This document shows, piece by piece, positions 5,458 to 49,054 of a stretch of 64,000 nt of DNA. Each line of letters starts with the position of its first letter. Position 1 is the first letter of the stretch. The stretch covers positions 2,706-66,705 of the forward strand of contig CAWCCK010000018.1 in the NCBI GenBank assembly GCA_963794025.1. Reading direction: 5' to 3'. Both the position numbers and the translations under genes were made by a program. Under the pieces are notes generated by a model that saw only the letters and a program-made list of their open reading frames with translations, did no database searches and had not been told where the DNA came from. The DNA comes from Ignavibacteriota bacterium (GTDB taxonomy: Bacteria > Bacteroidota > Ignavibacteria > Palsa-1295).

Positions 5458-6825
5458 ATGATTTCCGAATCCTTCCTGCGCGAAATATGGAAAGCTCACG
5501 CAAGCTTTCTCGTTTCTCCGATCTTACTTTCGGATGGTTCGCCCGTTGATATTATTGATTGTGGCACAGATAACACCCATCGTGGAGGCCCGGATTTTCT
5601 CAGCGCACGCATTGTAATGGATGGCGTTCAAATTAGTGGCGATGTTGAACTACATATCACGCCCGAAGGCTGGCACGTACATGAGCACGATGGCGATGCA
5701 CGTTATTCGAATGTCATACTTCACGTTGTGCTCGAAGATTCGGACGAGAAAGTTGGTCCGCCGGTACCGCAAGTGGTGCTGCGTGATAATCTTGCCTTTG
5801 GCCGAAGCGATTTGTGGGAACAGTTATTCCGCAAAATGTACGACCGTTCTCCGGAACTTCCATGCTTTCCGCAGAATATCCTTGTTCCCATGCGCTTCAA
5901 GCGTAAAGTGCTCGATCAATTCGGGCATGCTCGTCTTGAAGAATTAATTGATCGCGTTACCATTTCCGAGCGCGAAATTCCATCGGAATCAGACATGCTT
6001 GAGCGAGTCTATCAGCTTACGATGGATGCGTTAGGCTATTCGCAAAATCGGGTTCCATTCCGAGAACTTTCTGCGCTCTTGCCCCTATCGCGTCTGCGAT
6101 TTGCGCGTGAAGCTTTTAGTGAGAACAGGAGTATCTCATTGGAAGCCGTCTTTTTCGGCGTCGCCGGACTTTTGCCGAAACCATCCCTCGAATTCGACAA
6201 CGAGACGAACGAATATCTCCTCGAACTGAACGCGCGATGGAATGCCATTCAGCAATCCCTCCGATTTCCGGAAGTGCTTGCCGAGCACGATTGGGCGTTC
6301 TTTCGGATTCGTCCGGCGAATAGTCCGCACCGGCGCATTGCGCTTGCGGCTGTATTGGCGGAGAAGTATTTCAGTCGGTCAGAATGGGATTTTCGGCACA
6401 ATTTCTTCGATAAAGGCCCAATCGTAAATTTAGGCGATAGCCCTTATTGGGAAACGCACACCTCATTTGCGTCGAAATTACCCGCTCCACAATCGCTTTT
6501 GGGCGAGGAGCGTGGTTCGGCAATATGGCTGAATGTCGTTATTCCTGCACGAATAGCAAGGCTGCGAACAGAGCCGGAAAATCCTTCACTACGGCGGAGC
6601 GAGCGCGAATTGATCGAAGAATGGGGAAGCGCGCGGACACAATCGAGCGCAAAATACCTTTCTGTGATCGAACAGGAACTTCTGGAAGGCGAAAACGTTA
6701 AATCCGTCCGCTCCGAACAGGGTGCGCTTTTACTTCAGAGAAACTTCTGTCAGAAGCTACGCTGTTCTGAGTGTCCCATCGGTCATCGCCTGATAGAAAA
6801 GGGATGGCGGGTGGGGAAAGTATGA
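5458..6825 (+). CDS. DUF2851 family protein
   Basis: 455 aa. The N-terminal FL..W....F........G..V.I...G..N...GPDF..A.I...G....G.VE.H...S.W..H.H..D..Y.NVILHVV pattern matches the DUF2851 family common in Bacteroidota. Confidence 0.5.
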   Translation: MISESFLREIWKAHASFLVSPILLSDGSPVDIIDCGTDNTHRGGPDFLSARIVMDGVQISGDVELHITPEGWHVHEHDGDARYSNVILHVVLEDSDEKVGPPVPQVVLRDNLAFGRSDLWEQLFRKMYDRSPELPCFPQNILVPMRFKRKVLDQFGHARLEELIDRVTISEREIPSESDMLERVYQLTMDALGYSQNRVPFRELSALLPLSRLRFAREAFSENRSISLEAVFFGVAGLLPKPSLEFDNETNEYLLELNARWNAIQQSLRFPEVLAEHDWAFFRIRPANSPHRRIALAAVLAEKYFSRSEWDFRHNFFDKGPIVNLGDSPYWETHTSFASKLPAPQSLLGEERGSAIWLNVVIPARIARLRTEPENPSLRRSERELIEEWGSARTQSSAKYLSVIEQELLEGENVKSVRSEQGALLLQRNFCQKLRCSECPIGHRLIEKGWRVGKV

Positions 6826-6866
6826 AGTATGAAATGGGAAAACGAGCCTATTTCATACTTCATACT
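6819..6866. repeat. Hairpin (agtatgaagtatgaaat ... atttcatacttcatact) overlapping the DUF2851 stop codon; possible terminator
   Basis: 17-nt inverted arms with tandem (g)tatgaa units. Followed by the tRNA-Gly gene. Confidence 0.5.
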
Positions 6867-6874
6867 TGGCAAAT

Positions 6875-6954: not shown

Positions 6955-6990
6955 GAAATTATGAATGATGAATTATGAATGATGAGTTGA
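6955..6990 (+). repeat. Single-arm copy of the AATTATGAATGATGA tandem unit (x2), identical to the hairpin arms at 8833 and 8905. It supplies the start codons of the following ORF.
   Basis: ggaaattatgaatgatgaattatgaatgatgag. Confidence 0.5.
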
Positions 6991-8654: not shown

Positions 8655-8745
8655 ATTTTTGCAATTATGAATTATGAATTATGAATTATGAAAGGGGAAT
8701 AGCGTCCTTTTTCATAATTCATAATTCATAATTCATAATTGCCCA
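8655..8745. repeat. Hairpin whose arms are tandem AATTATG heptamers (x3 / x4) around a 25-nt loop, between tRNA-Arg and tRNA-His
   Basis: gcaattatgaattatgaattatgaaagg ... cctttttcataattcataattcataattcataattgc. Confidence 0.65.
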
Positions 8746-8825: not shown

Positions 8826-8935
8826 CATTTTTGGACAATTATGAATGATGAATTATGAATGATGAAGGTTGTTCGCCACTTTCTCATTGCCTGTTTTCTT
8901 AATTCATAATTCATCATTCATAATTTCATCCCATG
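8826..8935. repeat. Hairpin with AATTATGAATGATGAATTATGAATGATGA arms (inverted) between tRNA-His and gltX
   Basis: Left arm caattatgaatgatgaattatgaatgatgaagg. Right arm cttaattcataattcatcattcataatttcatcc. Confidence 0.6.
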
Positions 8936-10427: not shown

Positions 10428-12378
10428 ACTTCTTATCTTCCGCATTCTCGATAATAATAAATTCGATACGGCGGTTGGTCTCGCGGCCCTCATCGGTCGA
10501 GTTCGTTGTGATCGGGCGCGTCTGGCCATAACCGCGCGTTTCGAGGCGAGTGGAACTAATCGTGTGCTGCGTAAGCCAATCTCGAACAGCATTTGCGCGA
10601 TTGATCGAAAGCTTCTCATTCGCAGTCGAATCACCCTGGTTATCCGTATGACCCTGAACCGAGATTTTAATTCCCGGATATTTCTGCATCAATCCCAGTA
10701 ACTGATTAAGCGGCGCAAACGAGACCGGCAAAATATCCCACTTGCCTGTTTCGAATTCAATGCGCGGCAGATCGATACGCTGCCCGACTTGATAGGGAAC
10801 TTCTGGGCAGCCGTGATTCGATTTCGGCCCCGGTTCCAGCGGACACGCGTCCTCGCCATCGGGAACTCCATCGCCATCCGTATCGGGGTTGAGCGGGTTC
10901 GTATGATATTTAAATATTTCATCGTAATCCGAAAGCCCATCACCATCGGTATCTTTCAGAAGCGGATTTGTATGATAGACAAAGATCTCATCGTAATCCG
11001 AAATGCCATCGCCATCGGTATCTTTTTTCAGCGGATCGGTGTGGTATTTAAAGATCTCATCATAATCGGAAATGCCATCGCCGTCGGTATCGCGCGAAAG
11101 CGGATCGGTGTGATATTTCAGCACTTCATCGCCATCCGTAAGACCATCGCCATCGGTATCGGCAAGCCGAGGATTCGTATGATATTTATGGACTTCATCG
11201 CCGTCCGATAGCCCATCGCCATCCGTATCAGGGTTGAGCGGATCGGTGCCATAAATGCGCACCTCATCGCCATCAGAAAGCCCATCACCATCCGTATCCG
11301 GATTGTTCGGATCGGTGTGATAGATCATGATCTCTTCGATGTCCGTCAGCCCGTCGCCATCGGAATCGGCAAGTTGATCGAGCACAGCGTCGCCATATTC
11401 GTAAAACCCATCCGTCTTGCCAAACCCCAGCGCATACCGCATCGAAAGATACGCCTCCGGCCTGTGCGGCCCGCGTGAGGAACGTGGGAACGCATGTTCC
11501 AGCCGGAGCAGACCCGTCTCAATATCCAGGTGCTTCAAATTTCTGAGAACTATTCCAAAGTTCACATCGTCGCCGGCGACATCGAGCTGCGCGATCAGAT
11601 TGCGAACCCGGTACCGAACGAGCGCCAGTGGATTAAATCCCGGAATACCCTTATCGGTATAGACATTATACGTGTTAAAAAAATTGAGATAGCGAGAAAT
11701 AGGTCCCGAACCGGAATATTTTCCGTTCCCAAATCCGGCTCCGATGCTCACGCCATTGCGCGTCGAGTAACGCACTTCGCCGCCGGAACCCGGAAGCTCC
11801 GGCCCCATGATCACATCTTCCGCCATATCCTCAGCCGATGCTTCCCGAAGCAGCTTGCCATAATCGCTCGAATCCGGTGGATGACCAAGCCAGTACGTCA
11901 CCAAGAACGAGAGCGAATTCCGATCTGGGTAAATACTTTTATCGCTTTGACCATCGCCCAGATATTCGTTCGCATCTTTCTTTGCAAAAAGATTCTCACC
12001 GCGAATGCTGAGTCCTATCTTCGACGAATCCCCACCAATGACAAACCGGTCGATCTGGAACTGTGGGTTCCAATCGATGAACGGAAGCATATCCGATGGG
12101 AACACATACGAGATCAGCCCAAAGCGGAACTGCCCGTACTCCATCGAAACATACTGATTGAAATTGATCTGCTTATCGGTGACGCCACCTGTCGAGTGCG
12201 TAAAATCATCCCATTGCGAATTCGGCGGCGTCGAAGCACCCCATCCGATGATGACTCGAAAATCGCTGAAGCGCTCGAACGGCGAACGAAGATCCTCAAA
12301 TTGCGCGTGTGCAGAAGCACCGACGCTCAGAACGGCGGCGGTAATAGCAAATCTGGCAAAAATCAGTTTTACGCGCAC
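10426..12378 (-). CDS. OmpA-family outer membrane protein with thrombospondin type-3 (DTDGDGxxDxDE) repeats and a C-terminal OmpA/MotB peptidoglycan-binding domain
   Basis: N-terminal signal peptide, ~9 TSP3 calcium-binding repeats ([12 protein letters not shown]...) and a C-terminal OmpA-like block ([23 protein letters not shown]). Confidence 0.75.
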
Positions 12379-24909: not shown

Positions 24910-25035
24910 GGAATAATTACGAATTTCAAATTACGAATTACGAGTCTCAAAACTTCAGGGCGAATCTGCCGCGATCTTGTTTGGCGCAGATTCGTAATTC
25001 GCAATTTGAAATCCGTAATTTTTCATAATGACGAC
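24905..25035. repeat. AATTACGAA-type tandem-unit inverted repeats with an inner palindrome (ggcgaatctgccgcg...cgcagattcg) between nuoA and nuoB
   Basis: aattacgaatttcaaattacgaattacgag ... ttcgtaattcgcaatttgaaatccgtaattt. Confidence 0.55.
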
Positions 25036-37449: not shown

Positions 37450-38607
37450 ATGAATTTCCAATACACCGAAGACCACATCGCCATTCGCGACGCCGCGCGA
37501 GAGTTTGCTGAGAATGAAATCGCGCCTTCCGCCGTCGAGCGCGATAAAACGGGCGAGTTCCCAACGGAGATCGTCCAAAAATTGGGCGAGCTTGGGTTCT
37601 TAGGAATGATGGTCGCGCCGGAATGGGGCGGCGCAGGACTCGACACCGTCAGCTACGTGCTTGCCATCGAAGAAATCGCGAAAGTCGATGCGAGCGTGGC
37701 TGTCATCATGTCGGTGAATAATTCCCTTGTCTGCTGGGTGATCCAAACCTTCGGCACGGATGAACAAAAGGAACGGTTCCTGCACCCGCTTGCAACCGGC
37801 CAAAAGCTCGGCGCGTATTGCCTCAGCGAACCCGGCGTTGGCTCCGATGCTACGAAGCAAGCCACGACGGCCACGCTGCAAACCGATGGAAGCTACCTCA
37901 TCAACGGCGCGAAAAATTGGATCACCAATGGCACGACGGCAGATCACTATGTCATTTTCGCGCAGACCGACGCTACAAAAGGACATCGCGGCATCACCTG
38001 TTTCGTGATCGATAAAGGAATGCCCGGTTTCGAAACGGGACTGAAAGAAGATAAGCTCGGCATTCGGTCGAGCGATACATGTTCGCTCGGTTTTACGGAG
38101 CTAAAAGTTACGACCGATCGGATTATCGGCGATGTCGGGCAGGGATTTAAGATCGCAATGGAGACGCTGAATGGCGGTCGCATCGGGATTGCTGCACAGG
38201 CGCTCGGCATAGCGAGCGGCGCAATGGATAAAGCCATTCGTTATTCGTTCGAACGCCATGCGTTCGGCAAGCCGATCAATCAATTACAAGCAATTCAATT
38301 CAAGCTGGCCGATATGCAGGTGAAGGTCGAGGCTGCGCGAATGCTCATTCTTCGTGCTGCCCGAAAAAAAGATGTAGGAGAAAGTTTTATCAAAGAAGCT
38401 GCGATGGCGAAGCTCTATGCCTCCACGATCGCGAACGAAGTAGCGACGCAAGCCATTCAGGTGCATGGCGGCTACGGTTATGTGCGCGAGTATTTAGTCG
38501 AGCGCAGTTTGCGCGACGCGAAGATCACCGAGATCTACGAAGGCACGAGCGAAATTCAGCATATTGTGATCGCCAGGCAGCTTTTGAAAGAATACCAAAA
38601 TAATTAA
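37450..38607 (+). CDS. Acyl-CoA dehydrogenase (short/medium-chain type)
   Basis: ACAD N-terminal, middle and C-terminal domains. The catalytic Glu lies in the YEGTSEIQ motif. Confidence 0.8.
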
Positions 38608-38700
38608 GAATTAGAAATTAAGAATTAAGAATGAAGGGAGCAACGAAAAAAGCTGTCACGCTATCTTTATTCTTCATTCTTAATTCTTCCTTCTTAACTA
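38598..38700. repeat. AATTAAGAA-type tandem-unit inverted repeat overlapping the 5' end of the next ORF
   Basis: aattaagaattagaaattaagaattaagaatgaagg ... ctttattcttcattcttaattcttccttcttaac. Confidence 0.55.
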
Positions 38701-41414: not shown

Positions 41415-42252
41415 TTTTGCAATACATTTATTGCGCTCTTGATTTTCTTGAGTGCGAGCATTTCCTTCGCTCAATCCTCCGGTTCCCCCGCAATCCCCAT
41501 GCTCCATGCCGGGTACGTGCTCGATGAAACGAACACGCTGAACCCCAACGAGCTTTCCGCGCTCGATGCAAAACTTCGGCATTACGAAGATTCCACTTCG
41601 ACGCAAATTTGCATTGTGCTGATTCCAACGCTGAACGGCAATCCGGTGGAGGATTTCGCTGTCACCGTGCTTGATAGCAATCATATTGGGCAAAAAAACA
41701 AGAATAATGGTGCGCTTATTTTGCTTGCGCTCACGGATCATCAGGGATGGATCTCCACCGGCTATGGACTCGAACCCACGCTCACCGATGCTGCATCGAG
41801 CATGATCTATCAGCAAATCTTAGTTCCCGCACTGCGCAAAGGCGATGTCTATGGCGGACTCGATCAGGCAACGACGGCGATGTTCCAGGTCATCGGCGGG
41901 GAATTTAAGAACGAGAACCCGCAAAGCCCCATTCGCGGCAGGCGCGGCGCGCCATCGCCGGCGGGTGCGCTTCCTTATCGTATTAGGATTTTTCATTTTT
42001 CTCTTTATCATGCGTGCGTTGGCGGGGACGGGTTCCCGGCGCACGGTTGTCGGCGCGGGCGGAGCAGGTTCCGGATGCATGGGAGGGATCTTGCAGGGAT
42101 TGTTCTGGTCCTCGATCTTTAACTCCGGCCGTGGCGGATGGGGTGGTGGTTTCGGCAGCGGCGGAGGATTTGGCGGAGGCGGCTTCGGCGGCGGTGGTTT
42201 CTCCGGCGGCGGCGGCATGGGCGGCGGAGGTGGTGCGGGCGGTGGGTGGTGA
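41385..42252 (+). pseudogene. TPM-domain protein (YgcG-like; LemA partner) with a frameshift between the TPM domain and the C-terminal TM/glycine-rich tail
   Basis: Frame 1 (to 42122) holds the signal peptide and TPM domain (ICIVLIPTLNG...ALILLALTDHQGWISTGYGLE). Frame 2 (41845-42252) holds the TM FLIVLGFFIFLFIM and the GGGFGGGG tail. The junction is near 41940-41980. Confidence 0.55.
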
Positions 42253-42273
42253 GTTAATGCGGTTTTTTTAACA

Positions 42274-42994
42274 ATGATGAAAAAACGGCAAATTTACGCG
42301 ATACATTGTGCTGTCATTTTGATGGTATTAATCTCATGCTCCACTGCTAAATCCCAATGGTACGCTGGTGCGAGCGCACGGATGCTAACCGACGCGAAAT
42401 CTTTTGGGGGATCGTTTGAGATCGGGAAGGAATATTCTTTTGGGTGGTTGTTTATTCAAGGCGCGTATATTAATCGACTGCTTAATTATGATCAAACGTT
42501 TTTTGGATTCATTGGCTCTTCTCAGGTTCCGTTTGGGTATGGGATTGGGCCAGGCGACGTTTCATTCCCTAAAAGTACAGTCGTAGGGGGAGTGACTTAT
42601 GCCCAAGGTACCTACGAAGCGAAAACCTACAGCGCCTATATACCTAGAGGGGCCACAATACGTAATTTCTACATCTTATTGTTACATATTGTCCCATTCG
42701 ATTATGCTCGGACCAACTATTGGCTTTGCAGTCCAGAATCAATCCCCGGTTGCTGCTACCAATGATATTGAGGGTACTCCGTCCGCTCCTCTATATGGGC
42801 CGTTGATCTCCGCAGGTTCCATTCCAGAAAACTATCCTCCCGAATCATACACATCTGCTGGGAAGATAATAATTGTTGGGAACTTCGGTGGCTGCGTCAA
42901 AATTTCTTTGTCTGGAAGAGATCGACCAGCTTTGCTAATTCTCGATTATGCAACCCAGACGGGAGCAGGAGCCGGGTTGGCTTTTCCACTCTGA
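42274..42994 (+). CDS. Hypothetical secreted protein, apparently split across two frames (42274-42765 and 42599-42994)
   Basis: Signal peptide in the first frame. Both frames are protein-like and overlap by ~165 nt. Confidence 0.3.
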
Positions 42995-43816
42995 GGTTAG
43001 GGCGTAGTTTAATTTATAGATCCCTGTTGCGGAACCATAGTTTTTCCGTTTTTTGTACTGAGGAGATATTTATGCAATAAGGAAATTGAGATAATCGAAT
43101 TCGGCTTCCAATTCGAGTTGACCTAATTCGCTCTCAAAATAAGGGCGACCGTCACATTGAACCGTCGCTAATTGAGAGTGCATTATGCTTACGCTTGATG
43201 CAAGCTTTGAATAGGCAGGTTTTCGTTTCCAAATTAATGCTACCTCATCATCAATTTGGGCAGAAACATCTTTCGGTTCCCATTTTCGCTTAGGCGGAGT
43301 GATGGTAAGCGGTTTAATATCGTATAAGGGTAAAACAGAATCGTCTGAAATTATTTAAATAATGGTAATGAGGAAAAAGAGCTAAGTTGTCTGGGTAATC
43401 TCTCCTTGCAAGGCCATCGGAGCAATTAATGTTATCCCAATAACGAGTTGATGGGAACAGAATCCCAGCGTAGTTTTCCTCCTTAATCGCTTCAGTAAGG
43501 AGCTGGCAAGCAAGTATTCTTCAACGAAAGTCCCCGAGCGTAAGGGGGCTTTGCGGAAGGTACACATTTGCGAGATAATAAAACGATGAAATAAAGCAGG
43601 AAAATGGTTTATGTTCGGGTGATAACTCAAATCATTACAGTCCAGAATCCCAATTTTATTTTTGGCAAAACTTACAAAAGTATGGTTTATGGGTAAAAAC
43701 TTATGAACCGTATTCGATAGGTCGTAAATTGGCGGAACCTTTGAGGTGCTGATAAATATAGTGGAGATAACCGAAATGCCGCGAAAGCTATATCATTGTC
43801 TCCGCTCTTTTCCCAT

Positions 43817-44236
43817 CTAGCCGGCAATTAGTGAGCGGCTAAGATAGAGGATAGGAATTCCAGAGATACCAAACCTTTGGTTACCAACAAGATAACGTTT
43901 GTTGAATGGTATATGGTAGAAGAACTCTGCATTTATAGGTTCGGTATTGCTATCAAGAGATCTTCCACGAAACATTAAACCTAAATCGTCAAGTTTAAGG
44001 CCTTGAATCGGTGGATGGCTTTGTATAATGCCGTGCGCTTTTTCGAGTGCTAAAGATGGCTTACCATCTACATAACTTCTGTATATAAATAATAGGAGAC
44101 CGAAAATTGATCTTGCTTCACCACTGCTCCTTGCCGACTCAAGGAAGCAATCGATCCATGGTGCTATGTCACCCCTAATTTCAATTGGAAGACAATTACA
44201 CAAACTGGCACTTCCAAGGTTATCAAATTCAGACAA
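43817..44236 (-). CDS. Hypothetical protein in a low-GC degraded region. The C-terminal GNQRFGISGIPILYLSRSLIAG resembles the N-terminal motif of RES-domain toxins.
   Basis: Resemblance to the RES start motif (GGRWN.PG.PVLYlAes) but truncated. The surrounding 43000-44400 lacks intact ORFs. Confidence 0.25.
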   Translation of the reverse strand: MSEFDNLGSASLCNCLPIEIRGDIAPWIDCFLESARSSGEARSIFGLLLFIYRSYVDGKPSLALEKAHGIIQSHPPIQGLKLDDLGLMFRGRSLDSNTEPINAEFFYHIPFNKRYLVGNQRFGISGIPILYLSRSLIAG

Positions 44237-44403
44237 AAAACGATCTTGATAGTCTTAAGCGTGTCTTCGAATCGCTCTTTTCGGGACGATTGTTTTAGAT
44301 CATTCTGGAAGGAATCATTAAGAAAGCAGTTTAAGCAAGCCATTGTTGTTCTTACAAACAACGATGAGCATATGAATTGTGCCAATAATGAAACAAAACC
44401 AAA

Positions 44404-44427
44404 AGGGACACGCCTCTCAGCGTGTCC
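44404..44427 (-). terminator. Rho-independent terminator for the kamA-like gene
   Basis: Perfect hairpin gggacacgc-ctctca-gcgtgtccc. On the minus-strand transcript it is followed by uuuugguuuuguuu. Confidence 0.7.
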
Positions 44428-44435
44428 CTTCAAAT

Positions 44436-44476
44436 AAATCAGCGGAATCAGAAAGTAATCAGCGTAATCCAGGTTC
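44436..44476 (+). repeat. GCGTAATCCAGGT box, copy 4 (aatcagcggaatcagaaagtaatcagcgtaatccaggttc), overlapping the last codons and stop of the minus-strand kamA-like gene
   Basis: Read directly. Confidence 0.6.
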
Positions 44477-45598
44477 TGGATTCTGATTGAACACCTTCTT
44501 CTTCCTCGGCGCGCGAACGGGGCGTTTGCGAGCGGGAGCTTTTGTGGGCTTCGTCTCTTCGACGACATCGGGATAGGTATAGATGTCGTACTTGTAATTG
44601 CGGAGCACCCAGTTCTTTTCGTCGTGGCTGACAACGTAATTCGGCAGCATGGGAATTTTCCCGCCGCCGCCGGGCGCGTCGATCACGTAATAGGGGATTG
44701 CAAGCCCCGAAGTCCAGCCGCGAAGCTTTTCCATAATATCCAAACCAACCTTGACCGGCGTTCGGAAATGGTTTGCGCCCTTCGTAAGATCGGCCTGATA
44801 AATATAATATGGACGAACGCGCATGGCGAGCAGCTTTTGCATTAGCTCTTTGACGATCATCGGGTCGTCATTCACGCCTTTCATCAGCACCATTTGGTTA
44901 CCAACGGGGCATCCGGCGTTGGCGAGCATCTCCGTAGCTTGCTTTGCTTCCGGCGTGCATTCCCACGGATGGTTAAAGTGCGTGTTGACGTAAATCGGAT
45001 GATACTTCTTGATCATCTCGCACAAATTCGGCGTTACGCGTTGTGGAAGTACGCACGGAATTTTCGTTCCAAGCCGAATAATTTCGACATGCGGGATTTC
45101 GCGTAAGCCCTTGAGAATTTTTTCGAGCATGAAATCCGTCAGCGTGAGCGGATCGCCGCCGGAGAGAATCACATCGCGGACTTCCGGATGCGCGGCGATG
45201 TAATCCAGGCCATCCTGAATGTACTTCATCGAAATTTTTGAAGAATCGCCGACCTTGCGTTTGCGCGTACAGAAACGGCAATACATCGAGCACTGGCTCG
45301 TTACGAGAAACAGTACGCGGTCGGGATAGCGGTGCGTGATGCTCGGCACCGGCGACATAGCGTCCTCGTTCAGAGGATCGTCGGGCGCGTCGATGTCATC
45401 GAGTTCTTTTTCGTCCGGCACACATTGGAGCCAGATCGGATCGCCCTTATGACGGATGAGCGATAAATAGTACGGGTTTACGCGGGTTTGAAAGAAGTCG
45501 TTCAGTTGTTCCGCAACTTCCGGCTTGATACCGAATTGAGAAATGATCTCTTCTTTGGATTCAACGGATTTGCGAAGTAGCTCTTGCCAGTATTCCAT
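44459..45598 (-). CDS. kamA: Lysine 2,3-aminomutase (KamA-family radical SAM enzyme)
   Basis: 379 aa with the CSMYCRFCTRKR radical-SAM cluster and KamA-family flanking regions (PLP-binding). Confidence 0.75.
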   Translation of the reverse strand: MEYWQELLRKSVESKEEIISQFGIKPEVAEQLNDFFQTRVNPYYLSLIRHKGDPIWLQCVPDEKELDDIDAPDDPLNEDAMSPVPSITHRYPDRVLFLVTSQCSMYCRFCTRKRKVGDSSKISMKYIQDGLDYIAAHPEVRDVILSGGDPLTLTDFMLEKILKGLREIPHVEIIRLGTKIPCVLPQRVTPNLCEMIKKYHPIYVNTHFNHPWECTPEAKQATEMLANAGCPVGNQMVLMKGVNDDPMIVKELMQKLLAMRVRPYYIYQADLTKGANHFRTPVKVGLDIMEKLRGWTSGLAIPYYVIDAPGGGGKIPMLPNYVVSHDEKNWVLRNYKYDIYTYPDVVEETKPTKAPARKRPVRAPRKKKVFNQNPEPGLR

Positions 45599-45832
45599 AA
45601 TAAGTGATTTAATCGAACCATTGCTTCCGGCCTCCCGGAAGACACGGCCCGCGCACGATCGTTCATATTATCATGATCGCTCATGCTTTGTTAGTGTCAA
45701 TGCTTTACATCACGCTGCACAATTCGCAGCTCTGATGCGCCGACGATTTTCTCAACGACTCGGATGATCGCTCATCCTAAATGCAATATACTACATTCGA
45801 ATCGAAAAAGCAAATCGGCGGCTTAAAAATCC

Positions 45833-45893
45833 GGTGGTGTGGCACATGCTTTAGCTTGCGTCAGGTGACACAAGCTAAAGCATGTGCCACACC
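45833..45893 (-). terminator. Long hairpin terminator immediately after the GNAT gene
   Basis: ggtggtgtggcacatgctttagcttg-cgtcaggtgaca-caagctaaagcatgtgccacaccac. On the minus transcript it is followed by ccggauuuuuaag. Confidence 0.65.
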
Positions 45894-45895
45894 AC

Positions 45896-46363
45896 TTACA
45901 CTCTTTTGCCGAAAATGACGAGGTCGTCGCCCGGCTTGTAATAATCTTTGATCTGTGCAAGCACTTCGTAGTGCTGCTTGATGTAGAACGCTCGCGTGCG
46001 TTCGTAACTTAGCTGGCTGCTGGTTTCGGCGATGAGGAGATAGCCGTGGCGCTCGCTTACAAAGCGAACGGCGTATGCGTCTAACTCCTGCGCGATGCCG
46101 TGCCCCTGATATTCCGGATCGACAGCGATCCAATACATATCATAAGTTCCAATGGTTGCTGGCGTTGGGCCGAGCAGTAGAAAGCCTGCTACGTTATTCG
46201 ATACTTCGGCGATGTAAGCAAAATAATCTTTTTGCTCTGGTTGTCCCGTACAAATGTCAATGAGCTCTTCGGCGATCGTCACTTCCGCTTCGGAAAAATT
46301 CTTCGTCGCGCGGATGAGTCGGAGAATGTGATCGCGGTCTTCTTTTTTTATTTCACGTATCAT
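45896..46363 (-). CDS. GNAT family N-acetyltransferase
   Basis: 155 aa with an acetyl-CoA binding motif (Q.HGIAQEL). Confidence 0.7.
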   Translation of the reverse strand: MIREIKKEDRDHILRLIRATKNFSEAEVTIAEELIDICTGQPEQKDYFAYIAEVSNNVAGFLLLGPTPATIGTYDMYWIAVDPEYQGHGIAQELDAYAVRFVSERHGYLLIAETSSQLSYERTRAFYIKQHYEVLAQIKDYYKPGDDLVIFGKRV

Positions 46364-46464
46364 GCAAAAAAATGTTCCGCATGGTGTGTTTAACGACGTG
46401 TTCGTTTCGATGGTTCAATTTTCAACGCTTCATTCAAAATTATTAATGCAAGCTCTCACGAATT

Positions 46465-47520
46465 TTATTGTGAGCGTTCTGCTGCGCGATTGAGAATTTC
46501 GTTGATCGTCGCAGCATACGTTCTTCCGCTCGTTCGGGCGGCGCGCATGAAGCCGGCGTCTTCGCTAATATCCGGATTCGGATTTGCTTCGAGCACGAAA
46601 AGGTTACCATTCGCATCCAGCCGCATATCCACGCGCCCGTAATCACGCAAGCCTATGGCGTTAGCGGCTCGAAGTGCGATGGATCGCGCTTCAATCGCAA
46701 TGTGCTCCGGTAACTTTGCCGGACATTCCGGCATCGTTGTCTGATAGATCGGCGATTCTTCCACCCACTTCGCTTCATAGCTCACGATGTGTGGCATTCC
46801 CTCCGGCATTTTGTCGAAGGTGATCTCCGAGATCGGAAGCGTGATGAACGTACTATCAGACGCCGCTAAGACGGCAACGTTTAATTCTCTGCCATCGATA
46901 AATTCTTCCGCAAGCGCGGGTTGCTCGAATTCTTTCTGAATAAATTTTACTCGTTTTGCGAGGGACGTTGCATCTTGCACGATGGCATTGGAATCTATTC
47001 CAATACTTGCATCTTCATGCACAGGTTTTACGATGAGCGGAAAGCGTAGATGAGGATCGAGCGATTCCATTTTCTCGTGCTCGAAAAGTTGATGTCTCGG
47101 CGTAGGAATGCCGTTGGCGAGAAAGACAGCTTTTGCCAGCGCCTTTTCGAGCGCAAGCCCCAGTGCAAGCGGCGGTGAGCCGGTATAAGGAATGCGAAAT
47201 AACTCATAGAGCGCAGCTACGTTCATCTCAAGCTTCGATTGACCGAGAATAGCTTCGCAGCAATTAAAAATTACTTCAGGGCGCTCGGTCGATAGAAAGG
47301 AGCACAACCTCTGGGTATCGTCATCGGCGCTAAAGATAGTTACCTGATGTCCGTGCTCTTTCAGCGCGCTTGCGATGGAGCGCATTTGTTCGAGCACGCC
47401 AAATTCGGACGCGTCGATAAATTCGCTGGAAGGCGGATGGTAATTTGGATCCGACCGGCGCAGCCAGTGATCCTCGGAAGCCGTGTTGCGCGGCTCGTTA
47501 TAAATAACAGAGACTTTCAA
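46465..47520 (-). CDS. D-alanine--D-alanine ligase-family ATP-grasp enzyme (paralogue 2)
   Basis: Ddl-like blocks: IPYTGS, FPLIVKP, EEFIDGRE, EANPNPD. Confidence 0.65.
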   Translation of the reverse strand: MKVSVIYNEPRNTASEDHWLRRSDPNYHPPSSEFIDASEFGVLEQMRSIASALKEHGHQVTIFSADDDTQRLCSFLSTERPEVIFNCCEAILGQSKLEMNVAALYELFRIPYTGSPPLALGLALEKALAKAVFLANGIPTPRHQLFEHEKMESLDPHLRFPLIVKPVHEDASIGIDSNAIVQDATSLAKRVKFIQKEFEQPALAEEFIDGRELNVAVLAASDSTFITLPISEITFDKMPEGMPHIVSYEAKWVEESPIYQTTMPECPAKLPEHIAIEARSIALRAANAIGLRDYGRVDMRLDANGNLFVLEANPNPDISEDAGFMRAARTSGRTYAATINEILNRAAERSQ

Positions 47521-47555
47521 GTCAATTACGAATTACGAATTTCAAATTACGAATT
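47521..47555. repeat. AATTACGAA-type tandem-unit repeat between the ATP-grasp gene and the four-helix-bundle gene
   Basis: caattacgaattacgaatttcaaattacgaattggg. Confidence 0.5.
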
Positions 47556-47921
47556 GGGATCCGAGTCATTCTTCAGCTGGCCTCTCATCGTTTTCTGAAT
47601 GGAGCCTAAAATTTTCAGTAATTCCTCGCAGTCCGTGAGCATCGATTCTGCCATTTTTTTAGAGAGATAGTCGGAGTCACGCAGAAGTCGAAGCCAATAA
47701 TGTGTTTCTCTCGCTTCACGATATGAGATATTAAGTTTTGCAAGAAAATCTTTCTTCGAACTCGCTCCGACAAACTCTTCAGCATTTGCACCTATCGAAG
47801 TTCCGGAACGAAGAATTTGGTCTTTTAAGACGAAAGCCTTTTTCTCTTGCAAATATTCACTCAACCCTATGATTCGGAGAGCAAAAGCATAGCTCTTATC
47901 TAATATGATATTTTGTTTCAT
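47547..47921 (-). CDS. Four-helix-bundle protein (TIGR02436-like, the family often found inside 23S rRNA intervening sequences)
   Basis: 124 aa. N-terminal YAFALRIIGLS...GTSIGANAEEF and C-terminal ETHYWLRLL match the family. Confidence 0.6.
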   Translation of the reverse strand: MKQNIILDKSYAFALRIIGLSEYLQEKKAFVLKDQILRSGTSIGANAEEFVGASSKKDFLAKLNISYREARETHYWLRLLRDSDYLSKKMAESMLTDCEELLKILGSIQKTMRGQLKNDSDPNS

Positions 47922-47968
47922 TGATAATGGGACAAAGAGAAAGCATCTATTATATAAAATTCGTAATT

Positions 47969-49054
47969 CTATTTCTTCACTTGTTTGCGTTCGAATTGGA
48001 ATGGGATACTATACCGGTCACAGCCGGATTTCAGGACAGATAGGAGCATGCCTTCGTAGGTAAGTCCGGCAGCGCGGGCGGCTTTGGGGAAGCAGGAATT
48101 TTCTTCCGGTTTGGGAAGAATTCCCGGCAACGGATTCACTTCTATGACATTTACTCGCCCGCGCGCGTCTAAACGCACATCGATGCGTGCCCAGTCGCGG
48201 CAATCGAGAACTTCGAACGTTCTGAGCACTACTGCTTCGATCTCTTCTTTGAGCTTGCTCGAAATATCTGCGGGACACGTAAAAATATGAAGCGGTCGCT
48301 CGGCGACATCATACACCCATTTCGCTTCGAAGGAATAAATGTTGTTTGCTTCCGGCGGAAGCTCGCCTAAATTAATTTCGACGACAGGCAGTACGCGCGC
48401 GTGCTCTCCATTTCCAAGTACGGCAACGGTAAACTCGCGTCCCGGCAGAAATTCTTCGATAAGCGCAGGCTGATGATATTCCTGTGAGATGCGTTCGATC
48501 TCCCGATTCATCGCGTCCAAGCTCGTAACGAACGACGAATTACGAATGCCTTTCGAAGAACCTTCGGAGATCGGCTTCACAATAAACGGAAAATCCGAGC
48601 CGGGCAGCATCGAACGGATGGAGCCGATAGGACGATCGGAAGTTATAAACCTTGCAACAGGAATTCCGTGATAGGATAAAATCTCTTTTGTGCGAGCTTT
48701 ATCGAGCATGATAGCAAGCGCGAGCGGCCCGGAGCCGGTATAAGGAATTTGCAGCATTTCAAGCAGCGCGGGAAATTGCGCTTCGCGCGCCGCTCCGGCA
48801 AAACCTTCGGCAAGATTGAATACGATGTCCAGATCATGCACCAGCAGCCGGTCGATCGCGCGGTCGGGCACGGCCTCGATCACTTCTACCGTAACCTCTG
48901 GATGCGAAGCAAGCCCTGCGCGAACGGCCTCGATGGTTTCCGGCGCATCCCACTCGGCGTAGAGATCGTCAAGCGGGATGTGCGGATGGCGGGAACGCTC
49001 TCGTTCATCGAGAGCGCCTCGTGGTTTGATATTCGCTAAAAGTCCTACGCGCAT
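47969..49054 (-). CDS. D-alanine--D-alanine ligase-family ATP-grasp enzyme (paralogue 1)
   Basis: IPYTGSGPLALAIMLDK, FPFIVKPISEGSSKGI, EEFLPGREFTVAVLG, EVNPLPG. Confidence 0.65.
   Translation of the reverse strand: MRVGLLANIKPRGALDERERSRHPHIPLDDLYAEWDAPETIEAVRAGLASHPEVTVEVIEAVPDRAIDRLLVHDLDIVFNLAEGFAGAAREAQFPALLEMLQIPYTGSGPLALAIMLDKARTKEILSYHGIPVARFITSDRPIGSIRSMLPGSDFPFIVKPISEGSSKGIRNSSFVTSLDAMNREIERISQEYHQPALIEEFLPGREFTVAVLGNGEHARVLPVVEINLGELPPEANNIYSFEAKWVYDVAERPLHIFTCPADISSKLKEEIEAVVLRTFEVLDCRDWARIDVRLDARGRVNVIEVNPLPGILPKPEENSCFPKAARAAGLTYEGMLLSVLKSGCDRYSIPFQFERKQVKK

Follow-up and report, generated by a model that had tools for sequence, protein, structure and literature searches.

We analysed a stretch of 64,000 nt from an Ignavibacteriota bacterium (GenBank assembly GCA_963794025.1, contig CAWCCK010000018.1, positions 2,706 to 66,705), called the window below, with a focus on a group of genes that combines a lysine 2,3-aminomutase homologue with two amino acid ligase homologues and an acetyltransferase. 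Positions refer to the window unless a comparison locus, denoted by an L number, is named. The open reading frame (ORF) listing shows five genes that follow each other in the same direction on the minus strand. The first one encodes AG1 (47969-49054, 361 aa), an ATP-grasp ligase with a fold like that of D-alanine–D-alanine ligases (Ddl). It is followed by genes for a 124-aa four-helix-bundle protein of the 23S rRNA intervening-sequence protein family (47547-47921), for a second ATP-grasp ligase, AG2 (46465-47520, 351 aa, TTG start codon), for a small single-domain acetyltransferase of the GNAT family (45896-46363, 155 aa), and for KamA (44459-45598, 379 aa), a member of the lysine 2,3-aminomutase family, which combines radical S-adenosylmethionine (SAM) chemistry with pyridoxal phosphate (PLP). 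A preliminary description of the locus, made from the sequence alone, had grouped these five genes into one cluster and linked them to a metabolite derived from beta-lysine. The gene boundaries and directions it gave agree exactly with the ORF listing, and Pfam and NCBIfam scans uphold its domain assignments for all five proteins.

Four genes form a conserved cassette

One genome per species was scanned with patterns derived from an alignment of AG1, which gave at least 597 confirmed species-level matches. The best 80 of these loci were then compared by tblastn with the five proteins of the window. AG1, AG2, GNAT and KamA are encoded in this order and on the same strand in 71 of the 80 loci. 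The remainder consists of five loci cut by a contig end, three with AG1-AG2(-GNAT) and no KamA, and one Nitrospinota locus with KamA-AG1 only. Chance cannot account for a clustering in which 71 of 80 independent genomes show the identical order of the four genes. AG1-AG2-GNAT-KamA is a real and widely conserved cassette, and only these four genes travel together. Of the proposed five-gene cluster, four genes are therefore kept across relatives and phyla, while the gene for the four-helix-bundle protein is a lineage-specific insertion, which is described further below.

The cassette is found in Kapabacteria, Ignavibacteriota and Kryptonia, as well as in metagenome-assembled genomes (MAGs) labelled Desulfuromonas, Acidobacteriota, Planctomycetota and others. 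Cultured Ignavibacteriota that carry it are Ignavibacterium album, Melioribacter roseus, Stygiobacter electus and Rosettibacter primus. It is also present on three megabase contigs whose context we examined, one Kapabacteria-like, one from Kryptonia and the 3.5-Mb contig of L004, with different flanks in each. In most lineages other than that of the window, the four genes are separated by 0-40 nt or overlap. In Ignavibacteriales and others, their arrangement suggests one operon.

The genes next to the cassette differ by lineage: HEAT-PPIase and LemA genes in the window, RecG, GpsA and PlsY in Ignavibacteriales, NusG-like and Wzc genes in Kryptonia. Clustering of the ORFs of 86 loci showed that the recurrent neighbours (RecG, GpsA, PlsY, IspD, QueA, NAD kinase) reflect lineage-specific housekeeping synteny, and the same all-against-all comparison of 86 loci revealed no further conserved partner such as a transporter, regulator, racemase or precursor peptide. 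Across 85 loci, the neighbourhood of the cassette is free of mur genes, neither ftsQ nor the lysine-fermentation genes kamDE, kdd and kce are among the neighbours inspected, and the window contains no AG or KamA paralogue beyond these. In several long-read or MAG contigs (L001, 9173-10225; L004, 9183-10278; L010, L015, L018 and L077), AG2, GNAT or KamA appears as two neighbouring matches or is annotated as two genes, which could reflect sequencing errors that shift the frame or genuine pseudogenes.

KamA resembles lysine 2,3-aminomutases

KamA aligns with the structure of the Clostridium lysine 2,3-aminomutase (2A5H) over 346 residues (E = 1.4e-115). It matches the Pfam families Radical_SAM and LAM_C, and its score of 293 bits on TIGR00238, the model of the KamA family, exceeds the cut-off of 199. 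The cysteines of the Fe-S motif (C103, C107 and C110) are present, as are R112 and K314, the equivalents of the carboxylate-binding R134 and of the PLP lysine K337 in 2A5H. D270 and D307 correspond to D293 and D330 of 2A5H, the two aspartates that we take to hold the epsilon-ammonium group of lysine. These seven active-site residues are each conserved to at least 95% in 72 cluster-linked orthologues.

Glutamate 2,3-aminomutases carry Lys and Asn at the two specificity positions. An assignment of KamA to this activity was rejected, as both positions are Asp and the score on the respective model, TIGR04368, is 425 bits with a cut-off of 650. KamA also stays below the cut-offs of the AblA equivalog model TIGR03820 (465 versus 525 bits), the arginine 2,3-aminomutase model (336 versus 600 bits) and the EpmB model TIGR03821 (220 versus 369 bits). 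From the residues and scores together we infer a genuine lysine-type 2,3-aminomutase that makes beta-lysine and belongs to a clade apart from the characterised ones. The match to 2A5H and the conserved lysine-specific residues thus bear out the initial naming of this gene.

The C-terminus of KamA (44459-44560, residues about 347-379) is a tail rich in Lys, Arg and Pro, ETKPTKAPARKRPVRAPRKKKVFNQNPEPGLR; the LAM_C model is matched over its first 58 positions only.

The two ATP-grasp ligases

Both ligases match the Pfam family Dala_Dala_lig_C (AG1, 1.7e-34; AG2, 3.3e-27) in addition to generic ATP-grasp models. They are 33% identical to each other (BLASTP, 9e-57) and appear to be ancient paralogues. 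An AlphaFold2 model of AG1, with a predicted local distance difference test (pLDDT) score of 82.9, was compared with the Protein Data Bank by Foldseek. The top matches are all DdlB or DdlA structures (E = 3e-26, 24-29% identity, TM-score 0.7-0.84); AG1 therefore has a Ddl-like fold and three-domain layout.

AG1 and AG2 share with the Ddl and Van ligases not only this three-domain ATP-grasp fold but also the residues for ATP/Mg binding and catalysis. Based on an alignment to E. coli DdlB, E15, S150 and K215 correspond to E34, S166 and K245 of AG1, and R255, D257, E270 and N272 to R290, D292, E305 and N307; K119 and K160 of AG1, which belong to the catalytic set, are conserved as well. Among 79 orthologues of AG2, conservation is seen at the catalytic K165, K251-W252, R296, D298, E311 and N313. 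The substrate-binding positions deviate from those of Ddl. Of the triad that binds the first substrate (E15-S150-Y216), AG1 keeps the Glu, embedded in an invariant A-E-W/C-D motif, and the Ser, whereas Y216 of the omega-loop is replaced by Trp in both ligases (W246 and W252). The Glu equivalent to E15 is not conserved in the AG2 family alignment. H63 of Ddl is replaced by Glu in both proteins (E83 in AG1, E89 in AG2), and AG1 carries a four-residue acidic insertion (LPxPExNSCFP) in the loop that contacts the carboxylate of the second D-Ala (S281/L282). The retained omega-loop region with its conserved K-W pair would fit a small-molecule substrate, and the extra conserved acidic residues would fit a cationic one, although neither amounts to proof. 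D36 of AG2 was considered as a specificity switch of KamA-linked loci and discarded, since in the alignment it follows phylogeny within an N-terminus that is conserved only weakly.

In public annotation, the ligases appear as 'D-alanine--D-alanine ligase' or 'ATP-grasp domain-containing protein'. If the former were right, AG1 and AG2 would be ordinary cell-wall ligases that form D-Ala-D-Ala or D-Ala-D-X, and their adjacency to kamA would be a matter of chance. Indeed, their nearest relatives by sequence and by structure are all Ddl enzymes. Yet the identity to these is only 24-31%, and the scores on the best Ddl model of NCBIfam, NF002378, are 177 bits for AG1 and 150 bits for AG2 with a cut-off of 243 bits. 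All other Ddl and Van models give lower scores still, and no cut-off of the Ddl models lies below 243 bits. The Pfam scan found no match to the N-terminal Ddl domain (PF01820, Dala_Dala_lig_N) in either protein.

We also calculated a neighbour-joining tree (200 bootstraps) from 15 AG1 and 13 AG2 sequences, DdlA, DdlB, RimK and GshB of E. coli, and the RimK-like protein of L035. AG1 is monophyletic in 200 of 200 bootstraps, and DdlA and DdlB, the only Ddl references in the tree, stand apart as a clade of their own in 196. A group of AG1, AG2 and Ddl is separated from RimK and GshB in 197 of 200 bootstraps, whereas the branching order within it is poorly supported: AG1 joins AG2 with Ddl outside in 108 replicates and joins Ddl in 92. 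Within AG1 and within AG2, the sequences branch in congruent ways, which fits two genes inherited as a pair.

The scores below every Ddl cut-off, the lack of a mur/ftsQ context and the clades separate from E. coli DdlA/B all speak against bona fide Ddl enzymes, as does the linkage to GNAT and KamA, which is fixed across phyla. We regard the reading as cell-wall ligases as largely refuted and its remaining probability as very small. The preliminary description had named two findings that together would count against it, a grouping of the ligases with true Ddl or MurF-associated enzymes and a cluster that is not conserved among relatives. In our tree, with its two Ddl references, AG1 and AG2 fall outside the Ddl clade, and the four-gene order is kept, so that neither part holds.

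The acetyltransferase

The GNAT protein matches the Pfam families Acetyltransf_7 and Acetyltransf_1. Its best named match in NCBIfam is RimI, with 33 bits against a cut-off of 86, and no named family reaches its cut-off. The only close solved relative is 2R7H (2e-24), reportedly from a Desulfovibrio strain, deposited as a 'putative D-alanine N-acetyltransferase of GNAT family' and, as we assume, an uncharacterised structural-genomics entry. The P-loop for acetyl-CoA, Q-x-x-G-x-G/A, is retained by 74-79 of 79 orthologues, which also share a distinctive set of D-x-Y-W-I and E-T-S-S residues. The protein is probably an active acetyltransferase.

A lysine 2,3-aminomutase and an acetyltransferase, AblA and AblB, make up the known two-enzyme route to the osmolyte N-epsilon-acetyl-beta-lysine in methanogens and green sulfur bacteria, and the kamA-yodP pair of Bacillus is similar. 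The two genes of the window could therefore be a pair of this type, with the job of the ligases unrelated to it. Like AblA, KamA is linked to a GNAT protein and keeps the lysine-specific active-site residues, and AblA is its best-scoring named model. KamA nevertheless remains under the AblA cut-off, and the GNAT protein is a small single-domain enzyme of 155 aa for which AblB was not among the NCBIfam matches even at E ≤ 10, although a model for AblB, presumably TIGR03827, is part of that collection. The gene linkage points in the same direction. The two ligases are fixed components of the cassette; where KamA is missing, GNAT stays with the ligases, and where GNAT is missing, KamA stays with AG1. 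By its sequence the GNAT protein is not of the AblB type, and an AblA/AblB-like pair next to unrelated ligases seems to us quite improbable.

Terminators, promoter and leader

The GNAT gene ends in a terminator-like hairpin (about 45825-45895) directly 3' of its stop codon, which consists of a 29-bp perfect stem followed by a T-run (-58.1 kcal/mol, z = -13). The arms of this stem are unique in the window. A long perfect palindrome is found directly 3' of the GNAT stop codon in L006-L009 as well. Its sequence varies by genome, while the T-run and the downstream region are shared; the terminator is thus conserved in position and variable in sequence. An intrinsic terminator 3' of kamA (44392-44431, hairpin 44402-44431) has a 13-bp stem with seven GC pairs and a T-run (-23 kcal/mol, z = -6.3). 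Both strong terminators had been noted before and are confirmed by the hairpins, T-runs and folding energies.

The region between the GNAT terminator and kamA (45599-45814) contains a Bacteroidetes-type promoter-like site, TTTG-N20-TATATTGC, and, downstream of it, a structured leader of ~190 nt; both are kept in the window, L001 and L006-L010. Two hairpins of the leader are conserved (about 45708-45738 and about 45612-45651), and RNAalifold predicts 27 pairs, of which four show compensatory changes. The hairpin nearest to the start codon, CCGTG...CAATGG, recurs ahead of kamA in L011-L013, which belong to more distant Kapabacteria, with other stem sequences. A search of Rfam for a riboswitch upstream of kamA at E ≤ 1 gave only spurious matches of miRNA models to the terminator hairpin. 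We consider the leader a candidate cis-regulatory RNA.

A proposed pathway to an acetylated beta-lysine conjugate

Based on these observations, we propose that the four-gene unit encodes an ATP-dependent pathway to a small cytoplasmic (pseudo)peptide of two or three units that contains beta-lysine and is N-acetylated, a reading that we hold at a probability of roughly 55%. In a first step, KamA would convert L-lysine to beta-lysine (3,6-diaminohexanoate), as its active-site residues suggest. AG1 would then form an amide bond involving beta-lysine via an acyl-phosphate, in keeping with its fold, its catalytic residues and its linkage to KamA in two gene arrangements. AG2 may add a second amide bond. 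Its acyl donor is probably extended or blocked and has no free alpha-amine, because AG2 lacks the Glu that holds the free alpha-amino group in Ddl. Finally, the GNAT enzyme could cap a remaining free amine with acetyl-CoA.

The second of the two arrangements is found in Nitrospinota, where the gene order is lepA-lepB-KamA-AG1-HU and neither AG2 nor GNAT is nearby (L083, 3103-5572; L090, 5624-8002; L091, 5691-8002). KamA carries an N-terminal extension here (419-446 aa), and in L091 its gene overlaps that of AG1 by 16 nt. This is an independent gene order, which ties KamA specifically to AG1, and it is the main reason why beta-lysine is placed at the AG1 step.

The proposed unit works like the AblA/AblB route extended by two Ddl-fold ligases. 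It is also comparable to the synthetases of N-acetylglutaminylglutamine amide (NAGGN) and N-acetylaspartylglutamate (NAAG). NAGGN, an N-acetylated dipeptide solute, is made by Ngg, a GNAT domain fused to an ATP-grasp ligase, together with AsnO. As far as general knowledge of these systems goes, they likewise combine acetyltransfer and ATP-grasp ligation to yield a small N-acetylated peptide, but their ligases are of the RimK/cyanophycin-synthetase type and fused to the GNAT, and no aminomutase or beta-amino acid takes part. The matches of AG1 and AG2 to RimK, our only sequence comparison that bears on the NAGGN and NAAG ligases, are weak.

The preliminary description had suggested a dipeptide or oligomer containing beta-lysine instead of plain N-epsilon-acetyl-beta-lysine. 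A peptide or conjugate is indeed the more likely product of the two, and it may be a dipeptide, an oligomer or something else.

Loci without KamA and two other readings of the cassette

Several observations weigh against this proposal. The first concerns loci that have no KamA. AG1-AG2(-GNAT) occurs without an adjacent KamA in five loci of Thermodesulfobacteriota/'Deltaproteobacteria' (L035, 4962-10573; L070, 90-5863; L078, 2837-7449; L086 on CP129479.1, 5283-10669; L087, 6421-10687), where it lies behind a gene for a pyruvoyl arginine decarboxylase (ArgDC). An agmatinase gene, a deoxyhypusine-synthase-like gene and a RimK-like ATP-grasp gene may or may not be found upstream. Most of these loci continue with AG1-AG2-GNAT and a methyltransferase gene; L078 has AG1-AG2 without a GNAT match. 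An Acidobacteriota contig, JBFMAF010000010.1 with L088, carries AG1-AG2-GNAT alone. Since the trio also occurs without KamA, AG1-AG2-GNAT is the invariant core of the cassette.

Moreover, the ligases of the KamA-less loci look much like the others. Of the positions conserved to at least 95% in KamA-linked loci, they keep 82 of 87 in AG1 and 59 of 63 in AG2, so that either kamA is located elsewhere in these genomes or the core chemistry is independent of beta-lysine. We see the main weakness of our proposal here: unless these genomes carry kamA at another place, the core chemistry may not need beta-lysine. The earlier notion of a KamA-linked pathway stands in so far as KamA is part of 71 of the 80 best loci, and has to be qualified in so far as the core also exists without KamA and beta-lysine is perhaps neither its only nor an obligatory substrate.

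Two further points concern regulation and context. The strong terminator 3' of GNAT, together with the promoter-like site and the leader of kamA, makes it probable that kamA is transcribed and regulated separately in the lineage of the window; the doubts about co-regulation raised in the preliminary description were justified for this lineage. In addition, the cassette is near-universal in Ignavibacteriota and lies amid housekeeping genes with no transporter or regulator, a pattern that one would not usually expect of a cluster for an osmolyte or a secondary metabolite.

The ArgDC-linked loci may represent a polyamine-linked version of the system. Extended to all loci, this leads to a different reading, in which the trio performs a general conjugation of cationic amines: common amino acids would be joined to a basic amine supplied by the enzyme of a neighbouring gene, and the product would be acetylated. 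The amine would be beta-lysine in the window and agmatine or putrescine in Thermodesulfobacteriota, and beta-lysine would act as the nucleophile and not as the activated acid. In favour of this reading, the decarboxylase, with or without agmatinase and the deoxyhypusine-synthase-like gene, takes the place of KamA in five loci, and in L078 its gene overlaps AG1 by 4 nt. The acidic residues E83/E89 at the position of H63 in both ligases are consistent with it, and so is a Lys in place of E317 in the acidic second-substrate loop of AG1 in four of the six KamA-less loci. The latter exchange is confounded by phylogeny, and a change of specificity at this position is possible as a lead only. On the other hand, the ArgDC-linked loci share RecJ, SLT and PyrK/PyrD flanks and probably belong to one clade, so that the adjacency may be mere synteny. 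Nearly all conserved ligase residues are the same in both types of loci, which argues against different nucleophiles, and L088 has the trio with neither KamA nor ArgDC. We therefore regard a general amine conjugation as unlikely.

The housekeeping surroundings and the presence in almost a whole phylum would also suit the modification of a macromolecule, either the beta-lysylation and acetylation of a protein, comparable to EpmA/EpmB acting on elongation factor P (EF-P) or to RimK/RimI acting on ribosomal proteins, or the modification of peptidoglycan or a polysaccharide at a carboxylate. EpmB, a paralogue of KamA, serves protein modification, and in this system, too, an aminomutase of the KamA family feeds beta-lysine to an ATP-dependent ligase. 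The weak match of GNAT to RimI (33 bits) and the deoxyhypusine-synthase-like gene near some loci would agree with a protein target. By its scores, however, KamA is of the KamA/AblA and not of the EpmB type (465 versus 220 bits), and the ligases are ATP-grasp enzymes, unlike the LysRS-like EpmA, and retain the Ddl omega-loop region with the K-W pair. An efp-like ORF with the KPGKG motif was found neither in the 85 loci L001-L085 nor in the window, and clustering of the neighbours showed no ribosomal-protein or mur gene that recurs beside the cassette across lineages. In our view, a macromolecular target is improbable.

Our preferred reading thus remains the pathway to a small acetylated beta-lysine (pseudo)peptide. 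A broader version of it has somewhat less than even odds and is offered tentatively: that this is an undescribed pathway, near-universal in Ignavibacteriota, Kapabacteria and Kryptonia and scattered elsewhere, which yields a new class of N-acetylated beta-lysine (pseudo)peptides or, less likely, modifies a macromolecule, and which has a role in core physiology and not as a niche osmolyte system.

What would be new about the cassette

The enzyme families are familiar, and what appears to be new is their fixed and widespread combination. The unit falls outside the AblA/AblB, Ddl-family, EpmB and glutamate 2,3-aminomutase models; it is recovered only by the broad criteria for the KamA family and for ATP-grasp enzymes. 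A full-text search of the literature returned no published account of the cluster; its single match for Ignavibacteria concerned glutamate-1-semialdehyde aminomutase. To our knowledge, beta-lysine has few roles in bacteria and archaea: it is an osmolyte precursor, a fermentation intermediate, a modification of EF-P and a building block of some antibiotics. That at least about 600 species-level genomes combine KamA in a fixed way with an acetyltransferase and two dedicated Ddl-fold ligases points to a further and seemingly undescribed use of beta-lysine. If this is true, the Ddl branch of the ATP-grasp ligases gains new specificities, and the label 'D-alanine--D-alanine ligase', which automated annotation commonly gives to these genes, would be corrected. 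The proposal is testable, as cultured hosts exist, the enzymes are small and soluble, and the crystal structure of a GNAT homologue (2R7H) has been solved.

An intervening-sequence-like gene between AG1 and AG2

The four-helix-bundle protein passes the family models PF05635 (23S_rRNA_IVP; 2.1e-27, 95.8 bits versus a cut-off of 33.8) and TIGR02436 (1.5e-30, 105.6 bits versus 24). Its gene is flanked by heptamer repeats, which had already been noticed and which sequence reading, a pattern search, Tandem Repeats Finder (TRF) and alignment all verify. The upstream arm, GAATTAC GAATTT (GAATTACGAATTT; 47957-47969, minus strand), was recognized by sequence reading and overlaps the stop codon of AG1. 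The downstream array of AATTCGT type (47524-47555, minus strand) is the inverted complement of the upstream arm; TRF reports a period of 7 and 4.6 copies, and the array ends 3 nt ahead of the AG2 start codon.

Besides the window, only two loci have the gene between AG1 and AG2, L006 with 91% identity and L008 with 46% identity. By tblastn, neither L007, although its AG1 shares 91% identity with that of the window, nor any other locus contains it. In L006 (9087-9564), the ORF likewise lies between inverted arrays of AATTCGT type, with a longer upstream arm. Other heptamers, of GCCACTC type, flank the ORF in L008 (9105-9609), in the same inverted layout and at the same place. The gene is a passenger insertion and stands outside the pathway.

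Intervening sequences (IVS) in rRNA are bracketed by inverted repeats that form a stem. The insert resembles the 23S rRNA IVS protein family in its family scores and in inverted repeats able to pair as a stem. It differs in its location between two protein-coding genes of an operon instead of within rRNA, and in its repeats, which are heptamer arrays with a sequence that varies between alleles. It gives the impression of an IVS-like cassette that is mobile or exchangeable, and its inverted flanks might pair into a long RNA stem within the operon transcript.

Inverted heptamer arrays that enclose no ORF are found at 6818-6867, 8663-8740, 8837-8925, 24915-25020 and 38602-38697 of the window, and further ones at about 2033-2069 and 6957-6985. 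These arrays of AATTATG, AATTACG and AATTAAG types have a short loop and fold into very stable hairpins (8655-8745, for instance: -51 kcal/mol, z = -12). Perhaps they represent 'empty' forms of the repeats on either side of the insert. Another gene of the 23S_rRNA_IVP family is located between pgi and lepA in the Nitrospinota locus L091 (2584-2928), one more case of such a small gene amid unrelated housekeeping genes.

Other features of the window

Downstream of kamA, a region at about 42995-44400 contains weak ORFs only and has a lower GC content (0.456 for 42001-44000). Neither its 139-aa ORF (43817-44236) nor the other weak ORFs match any family. The corresponding region is entirely different in the closest relatives, with a gene of 913 aa in L006 and small ORFs in L007. 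Elsewhere in the window, a tandem repeat at 10868-11298 has a 69-nt period with 5.4 copies and 74% matches, and a period of 138 nt is also called for it.

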